This document shows, piece by piece, positions 1-59,735 of a DNA stretch of 64,000 nt; position 1 is the stretch's first letter, and each line of letters begins with the position of its first letter. The DNA is from Escherichia coli (lineage in GTDB: Bacteria; Pseudomonadota; Gammaproteobacteria; Enterobacterales; Enterobacteriaceae). Made by a program: the position numbers and the translations under genes. The stretch lies in the NCBI RefSeq assembly GCF_030384885.1, contig NZ_CP128613.1; one strand, 5' to 3'. The notes beneath the pieces are model-generated. The model had not been told where the DNA came from. It worked only from the letters and a program-made list of their open reading frames with translations, and did not search any database.

Positions 1-603
1 ACCCAGGCCGATGCAGCAGAGCAAGGAGTTGTGATCAAGCCTGCACAAAATTCCACCGTTGCTGTTGCGTCGCAACCGACAATTACGTATTCTGAGTCTT
101 CGGGTGAACAGAGTGCTAACAAAATGTTGCCGAACAACAAGCCAACTGGGACCACGGTCACAGCGCCTGTAACGGTACCAACAGCAAGCACAACCGAGCC
201 GACTGTCAGCAGTACATCAACCAGTGCGCCTATCTCCACCTGGCGCTGGCCGACTGAGGGCAAAGTGATCGAAACCTTTGGTGCTTCTGAGGGGGGCAAC
301 AAGGGGATTGATATCGCAGGCAGCAAAGGACAGGCAATTATCGCGACCGCAGATGGCCGCGTTGTTTATGCCGGTAACGCGCTGCGCGGCTACGGTAATC
401 TGATTATCATCAAACATAATGATGATTACCTGAGTGCCTACGCCCATAACGACACAATGCTGGTCCGGGAACAACAAGAAGTGAAGGCGGGGCAAAAAAT
501 AGCAACCATGGGTAGCACCGGAACCAGTTCAACACGCTTGCATTTTGAAATTCGTTACAAGGGGAAATCCGTAAACCCGCTGCGTTATTTGCCGCAGCGA
601 TAA
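1..603 (+). CDS. nlpD: NlpD lipoprotein (LysM/M23 peptidase-like), C-terminal part; 5' end lies outside the window
   Basis: ORF runs to window edge; M23 peptidase-like C-terminus; immediately upstream of rpoS as in E. coli. Confidence 0.85.
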
Positions 604-665
604 ATCGGCGGAACCAGGCTTTTGCTTGAATGTTCCGTCAAGGGATCACGGGTAGGAGCCACCTT

Positions 666-1658
666 ATGAGTCAGAATACGCTGAAAGTTCATGATTTAAA
701 TGAAGATGCGGAATTTGATGAGAACGGAGTTGAGGTTTTTGACGAAAAGGCCTTAGTAGAAGAGGAACCCAGTGATAACGATTTGGCCGAAGAGGAACTG
801 TTATCGCAAGGGGCCACACAGCGTGTGTTGGACGCGACTCAGCTTTACCTTGGTGAGATTGGTTATTCACCACTGTTAACGGCCGAAGAAGAAGTTTATT
901 TTGCGCGTCGCGCACTGCGAGGAGATGTTGCCTCCCGCCGCCGGATGATCGAGAGTAACTTGCGTCTGGTGGTAAAAATTGCCCGCCGTTATGGCAATCG
1001 TGGTCTGGCTTTGCTGGATCTTATCGAAGAGGGCAACCTGGGGCTGATCCGCGCGGTAGAGAAGTTTGACCCGGAACGTGGTTTCCGCTTCTCAACATAC
1101 GCAACCTGGTGGATTCGCCAGACGATCGAACGGGCGATTATGAACCAAACCCGTACTATTCGTTTGCCGATTCACATCGTAAAGGAGCTGAACGTTTACC
1201 TGCGAACCGCACGTGAGTTGTCCCATAAGCTGGACCACGAACCAAGTGCGGAAGAGATCGCAGAGCAGCTGGATAAGCCAGTTGATGACGTCAGCCGTAT
1301 GCTTCGTCTTAACGAGCGCATTACCTCGGTAGACACCCCGCTGGGTGGAGATTCCGAAAAAGCGTTGCTGGACATCCTGGCCGATGAAAAAGAAAACGGC
1401 CCGGAAGACACCACGCAAGATGACGATATGAAACAAAGCATCGTCAAATGGCTGTTCGAACTGAACGCCAAGCAGCGTGAAGTGCTGGCACGTCGATTCG
1501 GTTTGCTGGGATACGAAGCGGCAACACTGGAAGATGTAGGTCGTGAAATTGGCCTCACCCGTGAACGTGTTCGCCAGATTCAGGTTGAAGGCCTGCGCCG
1601 TTTGCGCGAAATCCTGCAAACGCAGGGGCTGAATATCGAAGCGCTGTTCCGCGAATAA
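666..1658 (+). CDS. rpoS: RNA polymerase sigma factor RpoS (sigma-38), 330 aa, full length
   Basis: Protein begins [21 protein letters not shown], recognisable as RpoS; start taken at internal ATG of the longer track ORF (630..1658). Confidence 0.95.
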
Positions 1659-1674
1659 GTAAGCATCTGTCAGA

Positions 1675-1708
1675 AAGGCCAGTCTCTTATGAGGCTGGCC
1701 TTTTTCTT
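1675..1708 (+). terminator. Rho-independent terminator after rpoS
   Basis: GC-rich hairpin ggccagtctc/gaggctggcc (1677..1700) followed by TTTTTCTTTT. Confidence 0.7.
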
Positions 1709-1778: not shown

Positions 1779-2186
1779 CTATTTGCTCATCATCTTGCGC
1801 ACCAGCTGCATAAACAGCTCCTGCTCTTCTCCACTCAAACGCCCCAAAAATTCCTCATCCACACTGTCGCCAATCGGTATCGCCGCAGCAAGTACCTTTT
1901 CTCCTTCGGCAGTCAGCCAGACAAAGCGTCGCCGCTTATCAGCGGTGTCATGTTCACGTCTGACTAAGCCACGATTTTCCATTCTTGCCAACATTTCTGC
2001 CAGCGTTGCTTTGGTGCTGACGGCTGCTTCCATCAGTGCCACCTGTTCGATACCAGGTTTATCAGCAATGGCGCGCATCACCGCGTACTGTGGTTTGGTC
2101 AGGTCAGGTAACTCGTGCTGCCAGCGGGCCGTATGCTGCTGAAAAAGCTGTCGTAACTGATGGAACGCTTTATTTCGTAACGCCAT
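1779..2186 (-). CDS. MarR/SlyA-family transcriptional regulator, 135 aa
   Basis: Size and winged-helix region typical of MarR family; divergent from the decarboxylase genes. Confidence 0.75.
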   Translation of the reverse strand: MALRNKAFHQLRQLFQQHTARWQHELPDLTKPQYAVMRAIADKPGIEQVALMEAAVSTKATLAEMLARMENRGLVRREHDTADKRRRFVWLTAEGEKVLAAAIPIGDSVDEEFLGRLSGEEQELFMQLVRKMMSK

Positions 2187-2301
2187 GTAAACTCCGGGCT
2201 AATTCTCTGTCGCTATCATAGCGGTTTTTCAGTGACGAAGAAGATGTTGTTACTTTTCAATCCTTGCCGCTGTGGAAATGAAGGAGTATGTTAATAATAA
2301 C

Positions 2302-2315
2302 GTTCGTATACGAAC
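2302..2315. promoter_or_regulatory. Perfect 14-bp palindrome GTTCGTATACGAAC, candidate MarR-type operator upstream of ecdB
   Basis: Read directly; lies 18 bp upstream of the ecdB ATG in the divergent intergenic region. Confidence 0.4.
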
Positions 2316-2332
2316 AATTAAGAGAGTAAGCA

Positions 2333-2926
2333 ATGAAACTGATCGTCGGGATGACAGGGGCTACCGGTGCGCCTCTTGGTGTGGCATTACTGCAAGCGCT
2401 GCGGGAGATGCCGAATGTCGAGACTCATCTGGTGATGTCGAAGTGGGCGAAAACCACTATTGAACTGGAAACGCCTTACAGCGCTCGCGATGTTGCCGCC
2501 CTCGCTGACTTCAGCCATAACCCGGCAGATCAGGCTGCGACCATCTCTTCCGGCTCCTTTCGTACCGACGGCATGATCGTTATTCCATGCAGTATGAAAA
2601 CGCTCGCCGGTATCCGCGCTGGTTACGCCGATGGTCTCGTAGGGCGCGCGGCGGACGTCGTGCTCAAAGAAGGCCGCAAACTGGTGCTGGTGCCGCGTGA
2701 AATGCCGCTTAGCACCATCCATCTCGAAAATATGCTCGCACTTTCGCGCATGGGCGTGGCGATGGTGCCGCCGATGCCTGCCTTTTATAACCATCCCGAA
2801 ACGGTAGATGACATTGTCCACCACGTGGTAGCCCGCGTGCTGGATCAATTTGGCCTCGAACATCCTCACGCCAGGCGCTGGCAAGGGTTGCCGCAGGCCC
2901 GGAATTTTTCTCAGGAGAATGAATAA
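2333..2926 (+). CDS. ecdB: UbiX-like flavin prenyltransferase (phenolic acid decarboxylase subunit B), 197 aa
   Basis: N-terminal MKLIVGMTGATGA flavoprotein motif and UbiX/Pad1 length; first gene of a B-C-D operon. Confidence 0.8.
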   Translation: MKLIVGMTGATGAPLGVALLQALREMPNVETHLVMSKWAKTTIELETPYSARDVAALADFSHNPADQAATISSGSFRTDGMIVIPCSMKTLAGIRAGYADGLVGRAADVVLKEGRKLVLVPREMPLSTIHLENMLALSRMGVAMVPPMPAFYNHPETVDDIVHHVVARVLDQFGLEHPHARRWQGLPQARNFSQENE

Positions 2927-4353
2927 TGGCATTTGATGATTTACGCAGCTTCTTACAGGCGCTTGATGACCACGGCCAGTTACTGAAAATCAGCGAAGAG
3001 GTGAACGCGGAACCGGATCTGGCAGCCGCTGCCAACGCCACCGGGCGTATCGGCGACGGCGCGCCCGCGCTGTGGTTTGATAATATTCGCGGCTTTATCG
3101 ATGCCCGCGTTGCAATGAACACCATCGGTTCTTGGCAGAACCACGCAATTTCTCTCGGTCTGCCGCCAAACACCCCGGTTAAAAAACAGATTGATGAGTT
3201 TATCCGCCGCTGGGATAACTTCCCGATAGCCCCGGAGCGCCGTGCGAATCCTGCCTGGGCGCAGAACACCGTCGATGGCGACGAGATCAATTTGTTCAAT
3301 ATCCTGCCGCTGTTTCGTTTAAACGATGGCGATGGCGGTTTCTATCTCGACAAAGCGTGCGTGGTTTCCCGCGATCCGCTCGATCCGGATAACTTCGGCA
3401 AGCAGAACGTCGGCATCTATCGCATGGAAGTGAAGGGTAAGCGTAAGCTCGGCCTGCAACCGGTGCCGATGCACGATATCGCCCTGCATCTGCATAAAGC
3501 GGAAGAACGTGGTGAAGATTTGCCAATTGCCATCACGCTGGGTAACGATCCGATCATCACCCTGATGGGCGCCACCCCGCTGAAATATGATCAATCGGAG
3601 TACGAAATGGCGGGCGCGCTACGCGAAAGCCCGTACCCGATCGCCACCGCCCCGCTGACCGGTTTTGATGTGCCGTGGGGTTCAGAAGTGATCCTCGAAG
3701 GGGTTATCGAAAGCCGCAAACGTGAAATCGAAGGGCCGTTCGGTGAGTTTACCGGGCACTACTCCGGTGGGCGCAACATGACCGTAGTGCGCATCGATAA
3801 AGTCTCTTACCGCACCAAACCGATTTTTGAATCGCTCTATCTCGGCATGCCGTGGACCGAAATCGACTACCTGATGGGGCCTGCCACCTGCGTGCCGCTT
3901 TACCAGCAGTTGAAAGCCGAGTTCCCGGAAGTGCAGGCGGTGAACGCTATGTACACCCACGGCCTGCTGGCGATTATCTCCACCAAAAAACGCTATGGCG
4001 GCTTTGCCCGCGCAGTGGGCCTGCGTGCGATGACCACGCCGCACGGTCTGGGTTATGTGAAGATGGTGATTATGGTCGATGAAGACGTTGACCCGTTCAA
4101 CCTGCCGCAGGTGATGTGGGCGCTCTCGTCGAAAGTGAACCCGGCAGGCGATCTGGTGCAACTGCCAAATATGTCCGTGCTGGAACTCGACCCAGGCTCA
4201 AGCCCGGCGGGGATCACCGATAAGCTGATTATCGACGCCACCACGCCTGTCGCCCCGGACAACCGTGGTCACTACAGCCAGCCGGTGGTGGACTTACCGG
4301 AAACCAAAGCCTGGGCTGAAAAACTGACCGCTATGCTGGCCGCACGTAAATAA
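2926..4353 (+). CDS. ecdC: UbiD-family phenolic acid (4-hydroxybenzoate/vanillate-type) decarboxylase subunit C, 475 aa
   Basis: UbiD-family size and sequence character; start overlaps ecdB stop (translational coupling). Confidence 0.8.
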   Translation: MAFDDLRSFLQALDDHGQLLKISEEVNAEPDLAAAANATGRIGDGAPALWFDNIRGFIDARVAMNTIGSWQNHAISLGLPPNTPVKKQIDEFIRRWDNFPIAPERRANPAWAQNTVDGDEINLFNILPLFRLNDGDGGFYLDKACVVSRDPLDPDNFGKQNVGIYRMEVKGKRKLGLQPVPMHDIALHLHKAEERGEDLPIAITLGNDPIITLMGATPLKYDQSEYEMAGALRESPYPIATAPLTGFDVPWGSEVILEGVIESRKREIEGPFGEFTGHYSGGRNMTVVRIDKVSYRTKPIFESLYLGMPWTEIDYLMGPATCVPLYQQLKAEFPEVQAVNAMYTHGLLAIISTKKRYGGFARAVGLRAMTTPHGLGYVKMVIMVDEDVDPFNLPQVMWALSSKVNPAGDLVQLPNMSVLELDPGSSPAGITDKLIIDATTPVAPDNRGHYSQPVVDLPETKAWAEKLTAMLAARK

Positions 4354-4363
4354 GGAGAACAAG

Positions 4364-4600
4364 ATGATTTGTCCACGTTGTGCCGATGAACAGATTGAAG
4401 TGATGGCGAAATCGCCGGTGAAAAATGTCTGGACGGTCTACCAGTGCCAGCATTGCCTTTATACATGGCGCGATACTGAACCGCTACGTCGCACCAGCCG
4501 CGAACATTATCCCGAAGCCTTCCGTATGACGCAGAAAGATATTGATGACGCACCGATGGTGCCGAGCATTCCGCCGCTGCTGGCGGAAGGTAAGCGCTAA
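4364..4600 (+). CDS. ecdD: Small decarboxylase subunit D (BsdD/YclD-like), 78 aa, Cys-rich
   Basis: Small ORF with CPRC ... CQHC motifs immediately after the UbiD gene, as in bsdBCD-type operons. Confidence 0.65.
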   Translation: MICPRCADEQIEVMAKSPVKNVWTVYQCQHCLYTWRDTEPLRRTSREHYPEAFRMTQKDIDDAPMVPSIPPLLAEGKR

Positions 4601-10688: not shown

Positions 10689-11345
10689 CTACTTTATTTT
10701 ATAAAATGACAGGCGCCCACTTTCCGGCGAACCGGTATCAATATAAACCTGGTTGGCGAATGTCTGGATGTTATCAAACATCATATGTCCGAAGATAAAG
10801 CAGTCGGCGCCGTTTATTTCCTGTAACTCGCCTTTGAGCGATTTCAGTACGCGATCAACAGGCCAGAGCAATTCTCTCTCCGCTATTTCTTTGCCAAAGA
10901 GATATTCATTCCCCGGATAATCTGCATGCGCGATGACATATTTTATTATGTCGTTAGTGATTTAAACAATATGCGGAAGATTATGAAAACGTAGCAACAG
11001 GTCTATTGCTTCTTTTTGTTCCGTATCACTTAACTCAAAGAACCAGTCGCCACCACTGGCAAGCCACATATTGCCATCGCCGGTCGCGAACGCATCCAAT
11101 GCCATCGCTTCATGGTTGCCTTTGACCGATGTAAACCAGGGCTGGTTTAGCAGGCGCAGCACGTTAAGACTCTCCGGCCCACGATCAATATTATCGCCGA
11201 CAGAAATAAGTAAGTCGGTTTCAGGGCAAAAAGAGAGTTGATGTAAGCGGGATTGTAATAATTGATAGTCACCATGAATATCACCAACGGCCCATATATG
11301 GCGATAGTGATGGGCATTAATTTTTTGATAGCGTGTAGATGGCAT
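10689..11345 (-). pseudogene. pphB: Serine/threonine protein phosphatase 2 gene interrupted by an in-frame TAA (rc of 10962..10964) at codon 128 of 218
   Basis: Two track ORFs (127 aa and 60 aa) are in the same frame with 30 sense codons between them; GDxHG, GDxxDRG and GNHE motifs lie before the stop, the GH motif after. Confidence 0.7.
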
Positions 11346-28701: not shown

Positions 28702-29013
28702 ATGCACATCATTTCGAAAGCGCCATTTGAAGAGTGCGCGCGCAAATATCCTAACGACGCTCTGGCTTTACACTCATTGTATCGGGTTATTAAGGAAACG
28801 GATTTTTCTACGCCAGAAGAAATGCGAACGGCGTTTCCCAACCTCGACAATTTTAAATATCGTAACAAATGGTACGTTCTGGATGTAGGCGGGAACAATC
28901 TTAGGGTTATTGCCTACATAAACTTTGTTAATAAGCGGTTCTTTGTGAAGCACATAACGAATCATGCCGAGTATGACAAACTGACACGTTACTACAGAGA
29001 GAACAGAGAATGA
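28702..29013 (+). CDS. HigB-like type II toxin (RelE/ParE-superfamily mRNA interferase), 103 aa
   Basis: Close architectural and sequence resemblance to K-12 HigB/YgjN (VFPNLDNFKY, VGGNNLRV); AAGGAAG RBS; not placed here in K-12 as I recall. Confidence 0.75.
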   Translation: MHIISKAPFEECARKYPNDALALHSLYRVIKETDFSTPEEMRTAFPNLDNFKYRNKWYVLDVGGNNLRVIAYINFVNKRFFVKHITNHAEYDKLTRYYRENRE

Positions 29014-29429
29014 CTGCTAATGCTGCACGCGCTGTTAAAGCAACAAGAGAACTGGTCAATGCAGTCCCCTTTCTGGGAGGCAGTGACTCAGAAGATGATT
29101 ATCGTGAAGCACTGGAACTGGTCGAATATTTGATTGAAGAAGATGACACCAATCCACTTATCGACTTTCTGGCGAGCCGCATTGCAGAGTATGAAAACAA
29201 CCACGAAAAGTTTGCAGAGTTCGACAAAGCCGTTGCTGCAATGCCGGTTGGCGTGGCGTTACTTCGCACGTTGATTGATCAACATAATCTGACCTATGCG
29301 GATTTGAAGAACGAAATCGGCTCTAAATCCCTGGTCAGTCAGATTTTGTCTGGACAAAGATCCCTGACGATATCCCACATTAAGGCACTTTCAGCCCGAT
29401 TTGGCGTTAAGCCGGAATGGTTTCTTTGA
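29010..29429 (+). CDS. HigA-like antitoxin with C-terminal XRE-type HTH, 139 aa
   Basis: 4-bp ATGA overlap with the toxin gene; C-terminal HTH (SLVSQILSGQRSLTISHIKALSARFGV). Confidence 0.75.
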   Translation: MTANAARAVKATRELVNAVPFLGGSDSEDDYREALELVEYLIEEDDTNPLIDFLASRIAEYENNHEKFAEFDKAVAAMPVGVALLRTLIDQHNLTYADLKNEIGSKSLVSQILSGQRSLTISHIKALSARFGVKPEWFL

Positions 29430-53310: not shown

Positions 53311-53403
53311 GGTGAGGTGGCCGAGAGGCTGAAGGCGCTCCCCTGCTAAGGGAGTATGCGGTCAAAAGCTGCATCCGGGGTTCGAATCCCCGCCTCACCG
53401 CCA
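53311..53403 (+). tRNA. serV: tRNA-Ser (anticodon GCU)
   Basis: Cloverleaf with long variable arm, anticodon loop cuGCUaa, 3' CCA; read directly. Confidence 0.9.
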
Positions 53404-53406
53404 TTT

Positions 53407-53483
53407 GCATCCGTAGCTCAGCTGGATAGAGTACTCGGCTACGAACCGAGCGGTCGGAGGTTCGAATCCTCCCGGATGCACCA
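53407..53483 (+). tRNA. argV: tRNA-Arg (anticodon ACG), copy 1
   Basis: GCATCCG acceptor stem, anticodon loop ctACGaa, CCA end. Confidence 0.9.
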
Positions 53484-53682
53484 TATTCTCCGAAATCTTC
53501 AGCGATGAAGGTGTCGAAGAGGTGGCGGTACTAACCGCAAGCACCAGGGAGGATAACGTTGCTTTAGCAACGGGCCGAAGGGCGAGCCGTAAGGCGAGTA
53601 ATCCTCCCGGATGCACCATCTCTTACTTGATACGGCTTTAGTAGCGGTATCAAAAAATCTGCAGTAAAGTAAGTTTCCCGAT

Positions 53683-53759
53683 GCATCCGTAGCTCAGCTG
53701 GATAGAGTACTCGGCTACGAACCGAGCGGTCGGAGGTTCGAATCCTCCCGGATGCACCA
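53683..53759 (+). tRNA. argY: tRNA-Arg (ACG), copy 2
   Basis: Identical 77-nt sequence to copy 1. Confidence 0.9.
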
Positions 53760-53955
53760 TATTCTACGAAATCTTCAGCGATGAAGGTGTCGAAGAGGTG
53801 GCGGTACTAACCGCAAGCACTAGGGAGGATAACGTTGCTTTAGCAACGGCCAGAAGGGCGAGCCGCAAGGCGAGTAATCCTCCCGGATGCACCATCTCTT
53901 ACTTGATATGGCTTTAGTAGCGATATCAATATCAGCAGTAAAATAAATTTCCCGA

Positions 53956-54032
53956 TGCATCCGTAGCTCAGCTGGATAGAGTACTCGGCTACGAACCGAG
54001 CGGTCGGAGGTTCGAATCCTCCCGGATGCACC
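53956..54032 (+). tRNA. argZ: tRNA-Arg (ACG), copy 3
   Basis: Identical 77-nt sequence to copy 1. Confidence 0.9.
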
Positions 54033-54231
54033 ATATTCTACGAAATCTTCAGCAATGAAGATATCGAAGAGGTAGCGGAATTAACCGCAAGCACCAGGAA
54101 GGATAACGTTGCTTTAGCAACGGCCCGAAGGGCGAGCCGCAAGGCGAGTAATCCTCCCGGATGCACCATCTCTTATTTGATATGGCTTTAGTAGCGGTAT
54201 CAATATCAGCAATAAAGTAAGTTCTCCCGAT

Positions 54232-54308
54232 GCATCCGTAGCTCAGCTGGATAGAGTACTCGGCTACGAACCGAGCGGTCGGAGGTTCGAATCCTCCCGG
54301 ATGCACCA
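54232..54308 (+). tRNA. argQ: tRNA-Arg (ACG), copy 4
   Basis: Identical 77-nt sequence to copy 1. Confidence 0.9.
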
Positions 54309-57217: not shown

Positions 57218-57290
57218 AAAAAGGCCACTCGTGAGTGGCCAAAATTTCATCTCTGAATTCAGGGATGATGATAACAAATGCGCGTCTTTC
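57218..57290 (-). ncRNA. micA: MicA (SraD) small regulatory RNA
   Basis: Minus-strand sequence gaaagacgcgcatttgttatcatcatccctgaattcagagatgaaattttggccactcacgagtggccttttt matches MicA as I recall it; 3' hairpin plus U-tract. Confidence 0.85.
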
Positions 57291-57918: not shown

Positions 57919-59031
57919 TTACCTGTCAGTCACCCGATATTCCACGCTATGTGCTTCATCAGGTTGAGGAACTTCCAGCCTTGAGGCCATCCGCATCACG
58001 ACCGCTTCAGGAACGGCATACTCGCGCCTGGCATTTTGCTGCTTCCATTGCGCCCATGGCACTTCCAGATAAACGATTTTTACTCGTGCGCCGTAAGCCG
58101 TAAACAGACTGATGAGCTGGCTACGCAGTTGGCGGGTAATGTTCGTTGCATTCCAGATGAACGGCTTTTTCTGGCGTAAAAAAACGCGCGCCTCTTCTTT
58201 TGCCTGTTGCACAATACGCCCGGTCGCGGTTTTGTCGTCCGGGCTGGCATTGATTCGCCGCCGCATATCATCAAGGCTGATAACGTCCATTCCCTGGCAC
58301 TGTTCACTGATATAGCGATCTTTGCCCATACCCGGTAAGCCACACAGCAAAATGACCTCAAAAGGTTCAGCCTCCCAGGGAACAAAATCAGGAGAACTTT
58401 GTTCATGGGTCAGATAATGCCAGCGTGCGGAATCAGACACGAACGAGCGCACTTTTCCCCAACACTGTTGCTCCTGGCAAAATAGCTCGAACAGATCGAT
58501 GCGTTCCAGCATTGATTGCTGATCATGACAATGGCGACCAAGCAGATCGGCACGAGCAAGCAAAGCGAGCAGACGCGTGTCGATACGCATTGCAGCCGTG
58601 AGCAGCAAACGCTCCGGTTCCGGACGTTCTAGTAACCATAGCGGTAACCCATGCAGACGCACCAGTGCAACAATTTGCTCGCGTAGCACGAACGGCGTCG
58701 GGATATCGCGCCATAAAATTTGTCGGGCCGTCAATTCACCCCGACGAGCATGACCAGGAGACTGAATACGTCCGTTTTCCTGCACGGTAGTACTGCGCTT
58801 TTCAACGTCATGCAATAACGCCGCCGCCCATAAAATTTCCTGCTGCTGAGCGGGGAGTTGCTGGAACTCTGGCAGAGCCACGAGTGCATTCAGCACCATT
58901 TCAGTATGCACACCAACGTCGCCTTCACCATGATGCTCCGGGTCTTGCGGCGTATTATGCATATCCTCAACCCAGCTAAAACGCTGGCGTAGCGTCGACC
59001 AGCGTTTGTCGTCGGTAAGTTGCCAAATCAT
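57919..59031 (-). CDS. HD-domain phosphohydrolase fused to a P-loop polynucleotide-kinase-like domain, 370 aa
   Basis: N-terminal HD signature ([10 protein letters not shown] ... LLHDVEK); C-terminal Walker-A-like GLPGMGKD and DVISLDD; not present between luxS and emrB in K-12 as I recall. Confidence 0.6.
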
Positions 59032-59735
59032 GACTGTTCTCCATAAGCGAACTCATGGGCCATCCGCGCCCGTCGCCAGTGGCGTTTCCAGTGCTCGGTG
59101 GTTTTGACATGATTTTTGCGTACATACTTGAAGACGTTATGCGAAAAGTCAGCGACGGAAAACGCATCACTATTCCGGCTGACAATGCCTTCCAGCGTAC
59201 AGGGTTGTCCGGTTTGCGTATCCCAGGGATCGAACGCACCGCGCGCATTGGTCAGCGCCAGAAAATCACGTTGCCAGCTTTTTTCATCATTCCCCGGCTG
59301 CGGGCCGGAGATTTCGGGAACGCAGGGGAAATCAAACAGAGCGGCGTAAAACTGCACCTCTTCCCAGCTCAGCCACATATCCTGGCAGCGAACGGCAAAC
59401 AGATAAAAATCCTGCTCCAGGGCGCGATATTCAATCGAATGAACGGCATAAAGATTTTCACCAAACAACTCCAGATCGCCGAGATCGTTTTTCAGCAGTT
59501 GCCAGCGTTGGCGAATTTTATAGGTCCATGCCGATTGTGTAGGCGCGGCATGGGAACGGGCAAACACGCCGTAGCGGTTAAGGCAGTTATTTTCACCGTC
59601 GAGTTTTTCAGTATGTACCAACTGCGAAATTGCCTGCATATCTTGCCAGTAACTGGCGTTAATGCGGTCATCGCTGGTGGTGCCAGGGGAGAAGGGGTAA
59701 TGCCAGGTTCTCCCGTATTTACGTTGGGTATTCAT
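59028..59735 (-). CDS. Small ATP-dependent nucleic-acid (RNA) ligase-like nucleotidyltransferase, 235 aa
   Basis: Covalent nucleotidyltransferase motifs in order: [41 protein letters not shown]; 4-bp overlap with the downstream gene. Confidence 0.6.

Follow-up and report, generated by a model that had tools for sequence, protein, structure and literature searches.

The window, as the whole 64,000-nucleotide stretch of DNA that was analysed is called here, opens with the 3' part of nlpD, followed on the same strand by rpoS, the gene for the general stress sigma factor sigma-S. nlpD ends at 603 and rpoS begins at 666. This order, which is conserved in enterobacteria, was the same in K-12 and in each of the records retrieved. 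The features of the locus are the following.

1 to 603, plus strand: nlpD (murein hydrolase activator), 3' part only, truncated by the window boundary; the rpoS promoter and most of the leader lie within this gene
99 to 665, plus strand: predicted 567-nt 5' leader of rpoS, its start obtained by arithmetic from the published distance (666 minus 567 = 99)
470 to 499, plus strand: Hfq-binding motifs in the rpoS leader, read from the sequence; (AAN)4, AACAACAAGAAG, at 470-481 and A6 at 494-499
550 to 572, plus strand: upstream arm of the inhibitory stem (cis antisense element), overlapping the DsrA/RprA/ArcZ pairing site; same in K-12
654 to 658, plus strand: Shine-Dalgarno sequence AGGAG, read from the sequence, 7 nt 5' of the ATG at 666; same in K-12
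666 to 1658, plus strand: rpoS coding sequence (sigma-S, general stress / stationary-phase sigma factor), 330 codons and TAA, supported by the ORF list, the translation, the family profile and the match to WP_000081550.1
762 to 764, plus strand: codon 33, GAG (Glu), the natural E. coli state; CAG in K-12 MG1655 and TAG in W3110-type strains
1511, plus strand: synonymous SNP in codon 282 of rpoS, GGG to GGA (Gly), private with respect to E. coli 2013C-4282 and the only rpoS difference from that strain
1672 to 1705, plus strand: intrinsic terminator 3' of rpoS, a 15-bp stem followed by a T run

Both the ORF list and direct translation gave 330 sense codons between the ATG at 666 and the TAA at 1656-1658, with no internal stops. 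Positions 666-1658 are the exact rpoS coding sequence, stop codon included, and coincide with the RefSeq annotation in the near-identical record NZ_CP027579.1. A previous sequence-only reading had described a full-length rpoS of 330 aa, and this was confirmed, the frame being uninterrupted up to its terminal TAA.

In the mechanical ORF list the rpoS frame opens 12 codons earlier, at ATG 630, which would yield a product of 342 residues. The appearance of this start in the list is what speaks for it. On the other hand, positions 1-329 of the RpoS equivalog profile aligned to residues 1-329 counted from ATG 666, the PDB constructs and the RefSeq annotation both begin with MSQNT (666), the AGGAG at 654-658 sits downstream of 630, and the K-12 sequence is identical over the ATG 630 region. 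The 342-residue product was rejected on the profile, on the PDB and RefSeq starts and on the position of AGGAG, and initiation at 630 is hardly credible. Since the family profile and both of these starts agree with an AGGAG placed 7 nt before 666, the 330-residue protein was taken as the right product. Three minus-strand ORFs within rpoS (1092-1619, 1196-1558 and 664-915) were also discarded. They are mechanical frames opposite a strongly conserved gene, without annotation or family support.

Identity and conservation of the RpoS protein

The translated protein scored 604.6 bits against the NCBIfam equivalog NF004207 (cut-off 394), with residues 1-329 aligned over the 329-position profile, and 480.7 bits against TIGR02394 (cut-off 378.7). 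The whole-protein score is above both curated cut-offs, which places the protein in the RpoS equivalog, while the RpoD and RpoH models scored below their own cut-offs on the same sequence. Four Pfam regions were found, all above the gathering score: Sigma70_r1_2 at residues 56-88, r2 at 94-163, r3 at 174-248 and r4 at 262-315. This is the architecture of a group 2 sigma-70 factor, with regions 1.2, 2, 3 and 4 and without the long region 1.1 and the non-conserved insert of RpoD.

Alignment to solved E. coli RpoS chains was end to end (E = 2e-211). Together with the NF004207 score, this leaves chance as no serious alternative for the identity of the gene. Chain F of PDB 5ipl (sigma-S holoenzyme) carries E33 and is identical to the window protein over residues 3-328; its G2, L329 and short tail are features of the construct and not of the biology. 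The sole difference from chain 6kj6_F is residue 33, which is Q in the structure and E in the window.

Residues I128, K173 and E243, checked singly, are wild type. K173 lies in the motif HIVKELNVY and was invariant in the alignment of cluster members. Located in region 2.5/3.0, this lysine is presumably required both for recognition by RssB and for the preference of sigma-S for C at promoter position -13. With respect to the other two positions, the hydrophobicity of I128 is reported to be critical (PMC5405132), and codon 243 is the site of a stop in the rpoS of VTEC strain N99-4390 (PMC2700278).

In comparison with K-12 MG1655 RpoS (NP_417221.1, b2741), 329 of 330 residues are the same and the only change is Q33E, K-12 having Gln33 (CAG). 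At the nucleotide level 21 differences were counted, 20 of them synonymous and one non-synonymous (CAG to GAG, codon 33), with Nei-Gojobori values of dS 0.091, dN 0.0013 and omega (dN/dS) 0.015. For a wider comparison, seven E. coli genomes were picked at regular intervals along the whole BLAST similarity ranking (pig, dog, cattle O157:H7, human blood isolate, O26:H11, TUM13867 and urine isolate). Over 1658 nt they showed 25-47 differences from the window, and the rpoS translation was identical to that of the window in all seven, each annotated as WP_000081550.1. With this Glu33 protein the window shares all 330 residues, and with the genomes that carry it also the nlpD-rpoS arrangement, the start codon and the terminator stem arms; such genomes differ from the window only by silent or non-coding nucleotides, among them the synonymous SNP at 1511. 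The exact protein has been recorded on at least 1000 contigs.

The sequence-only reading had allowed for inactivating substitutions elsewhere in RpoS. These were sought in the alignment against K-12 and the seven genomes, and none was present. No substitution separates the protein from its wild-type counterparts in the sampled genomes, and, codon 33 relative to K-12 excepted, all coding divergence of rpoS from the sampled E. coli is synonymous.

The proposed Glu at residue 33 was likewise found, encoded by GAG at 762-764, so that the allele combines an uninterrupted frame with a sense codon at this position. The distribution of codon 33 was evaluated by a census of 41-mers centred on its first base, in which exact matches were counted among 5426 complete E. 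coli genomes. As megablast requires a 28-base exact word, a central mismatch abolishes the match. The GAG (Glu) 41-mer was present in 4833 genomes, against 173 for CAG (Gln) and 121 for TAG (amber); the remaining genomes, about 300, had other variation within the 41-mer or no match. Among the matches listed, all CAG examples were K-12 or laboratory derivatives, and the 12 TAG matches listed were all laboratory strains, including W3110, J53, HMS174, AG100 and BLR(DE3). The W3110-type rpoS(Am) has the same gene and the same surrounding 41-mer as the window, but with a TAG stop where the window has a sense codon.

These counts are in line with published observations. Codon 33 is amber, Gln or Tyr in some K-12 strains; natural non-K-12 isolates commonly have GAG, as did all VTEC strains tested (PMC2700278). 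Glu33 was also seen in E. albertii, Klebsiella pneumoniae and Leclercia, in the small sample provided by the alignment of cluster members. Based on the genome counts, the literature and the occurrence of Glu33 in other species, Glu is the ancestral residue at codon 33, and Gln and amber are derived oddities of K-12. The single non-synonymous difference is a change on the K-12 side, both derived codons are peculiar to the K-12 laboratory lineage, and Glu33 is the species default and no special feature of this strain.

Leader, control elements and terminator

The main rpoS transcription start lies 567 nt 5' of the start codon, inside nlpD (PMC10948607). A consensus promoter scan of positions 1-2400 detected no sigma-70 site; P_rpoS was therefore placed by homology and by the published distance. 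The stretch 13-148, which includes the expected P_rpoS region, is identical to K-12. Over the whole of 1-665 seven differences from K-12 were found (12, 149, 226, 282, 372, 483 and 504), all of them in the nlpD frame; five are synonymous and two alter residues of the NlpD linker (A to G at 149, T to A at 226). With regard to nlpD itself, the gene is annotated with 1095 nt in many records and with 1140 nt in K-12, which reflects either a differing annotated start or a true difference in length.

The minimum-free-energy fold of 466-700 pairs 550-572 with 648-671, spanning the Shine-Dalgarno sequence and the rpoS ATG, and this pairing matches the published inhibitory stem. The pairing site of DsrA, RprA and ArcZ overlaps the upstream arm, 550-572. 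The predicted fold was no more stable than that of shuffled sequence (z = -0.59), and for this reason it is consistent with the published stem without being independent evidence of it. In the literature, the leader stem-loop keeps ribosomes from binding until it is opened by small RNAs (PMC10948607, PMC3783183), and an (AAN)4 and an A6 motif for Hfq are located in the leader 60-80 nt upstream of the small-RNA site (PMC3458560, PMC3783183). In the window the distance from the two motifs to the pairing site downstream is about 66-77 nt, which falls in the published range. A scan of the whole window with Rfam at gathering thresholds returned only MicA and five tRNAs, and no family over the rpoS leader.

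The 161 nt that precede the ATG (505-665) are identical to K-12. The translational control region is unaltered: the Shine-Dalgarno sequence, the inhibitory stem, the small-RNA pairing site and the Hfq motifs are the same as in K-12. Both Hfq motifs are unchanged, and the nearest differences, at 483 and 504, flank them without touching them.

An intact coding sequence could still be accompanied by an attenuated level or activity of RpoS, through leader or nlpD SNPs near the Hfq motifs or through changes in trans-acting factors. The seven differences from K-12 within 1-504, including the two that flank (AAN)4 and A6, could be read in this sense, and RpoS levels have been measured across ECOR strains to assess strain variation, according to PMC3074542. 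However, the Hfq motifs and the entire 161 nt before the ATG are unchanged, and the changes at 483 and 504 are synonymous, at third codon positions of nlpD. Both sites also vary within a nine-sequence set made up of the window, K-12 and the seven sampled genomes. The trans-acting regulators (rssB, hfq, dsrA, rprA, arcZ and the anti-adaptors) are encoded outside the window. No observation in the window points to attenuation of RpoS, and this explanation is regarded as very unlikely.

Between the window and K-12 no natural difference occurs over 505-806, that is, the leader and the first 47 codons of rpoS. Constraint at the RNA level over this interval was considered and rejected, since variable sites appeared at 591, 604, 629-631, 707, 746, 749, 758, 788 and 797 once the seven genomes were added. 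At the other end of the gene, both arms of the terminator stem match K-12 and the loop alone differs. Similarity to K-12 stops just past the terminator.

Lineage of the strain and interpretation

Over its whole length the window is collinear with the genome of E. coli 2013C-4282 (NZ_CP027579.1, 4694628-4758627), with 10 differences in 64,000 positions. That strain is a completely sequenced, stx1-positive member of Escherichia cryptic clade I (PMC10100065). About 99% identity over the first 25 kb was reached by only about 5 of the 5426 complete genomes, all others being at 96.4% or lower, and over rpoS only 18 of 5414 genomes reached 99%. The small number of genomes at this level over rpoS follows from an origin in cryptic clade I. 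By sequence, the window belongs to this clade and is very closely related to 2013C-4282. Despite the divergence of the clade, its RpoS protein is unchanged.

The ten differences from NZ_CP027579.1 are located at 1511, 7959, 8896, 10002, 10964, 19238, 28613, 32384, 38086 and 53196. Those in rpoS, ltnD, ygbI and ascF are synonymous and two are intergenic. The others are P271R in otnK, L466I in norV, A290V in hypB (silent in the overlapping hypC) and a nonsense change in pphB. In the latter gene (10689-11345, minus strand) a private plus-strand C-to-A change at 10964 turns codon 128 from GAA into TAA, which cuts serine/threonine phosphatase 2 to 127 of its 218 residues. The 41-mer around 10964 occurs in none of the complete E. 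coli genomes, 2013C-4282 included; that around 1511 was also found in 0 complete E. coli genomes. The ten differences may reflect a sister isolate or errors of sequence.

The latter possibility bears on rpoS, where an intact frame could misrepresent the living culture, through assembly errors or as the consensus of a mixed population in which loss mutants, known to arise readily, are present. Poor carbon sources efficiently select rpoS mutants (PMC2700278), and the differences from 2013C-4282, with two tested 41-mers (1511 and 10964) matched by no complete E. coli genome and a nonsense codon among them, could be seen as signs of such an artefact. Against this, the sole difference inside rpoS is synonymous. 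The near-identical record of 2013C-4282, which is independent, carries the same intact RpoS, and on this ground heterogeneity of the culture or an assembly error is considered highly improbable.

The preferred reading, to which a probability of about 0.93 is assigned, is that 666-1658 represents the intact wild-type chromosomal rpoS of a cryptic clade I strain near 2013C-4282, coding for the canonical 330-residue Glu33 sigma-S. The function of a stress sigma factor, suggested by the sequence-only reading, is supported as far as sequence can tell by the intact ORF, the match to WP_000081550.1 and the K-12-identical control region.

From established knowledge of the system, rpoS would be transcribed mainly from P_rpoS within nlpD, giving an mRNA with a 567-nt leader, and this leader would fold so as to cover the ribosome-binding site with its upstream arm. 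Under stress, DsrA, RprA and ArcZ would open the stem together with Hfq, while RssB and ClpXP would turn over sigma-S. The accumulated sigma factor would then steer RNA polymerase to the genes of the general stress regulon, such as katE and the glg genes. Clade I may have its own set-point of sigma-S expression, brought about by private synonymous and leader substitutions such as those at 483 and 504 with the protein unchanged, although this is judged very unlikely.

Unlike in amber K-12 stocks, the general stress response to acid, oxidative stress and starvation would be expected to be normal in this strain. This is modestly relevant to predicting how well a potential pathogen resists acid and persists in the environment, the closest relative of the strain, 2013C-4282, being stx1-positive. 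An intact Glu33 rpoS is already known and is the default state of the species. The observation is real but ordinary, given that the same protein was present in seven strains sampled across E. coli, and it raises no further question, since Glu33 is that default and not an informative marker. The intact gene matters only as a routine annotation or quality note.

Other features of the window

Downstream of rpoS, the interval 1779-4600 between rpoS and ygbN contains a MarR/SlyA-like regulator on the minus strand and the hydroxyarylic acid decarboxylase subunits B, C and D. The decarboxylase genes are followed by ygbN through ygbI, pphB and mutS. In K-12 MG1655, by contrast, the rpoS terminator runs straight into ygbN, without the insert of the MarR-type regulator and decarboxylase BCD. 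The arrangement in the window corresponds to the known pattern IV of the polymorphic o454-nlpD (mutS-rpoS) region (PMC4209514).

Between luxS/MicA and emrB, at 57919-59735 on the minus strand, two genes encode an AAA_33 kinase-like ATPase of 370 aa and a 235-aa protein of the RNA ligase family (PF09414). The pair looks like an RNA-repair cassette. It gave no match in the PADLOC comparison. Of the 5426 complete E. coli genomes, 999 contained it, mostly at 90-95% identity. Between hycI and ascB, at 28702-29429, lies a second pair, made up of a HigB-type toxin and an HTH antitoxin. Its PADLOC matches to PD-Lambda-2 A and B were weak, that to B covering only 9-115 of a 402-position profile, so it is probably a plain toxin-antitoxin pair.

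Ordinary E. coli features were also observed. At 53311-54308 a tRNA-Ser is followed by four tRNA-Arg about 275 nt apart with equal Rfam scores (67.1 bits), and the small RNA MicA adjoins luxS at 57219-57290 on the minus strand.
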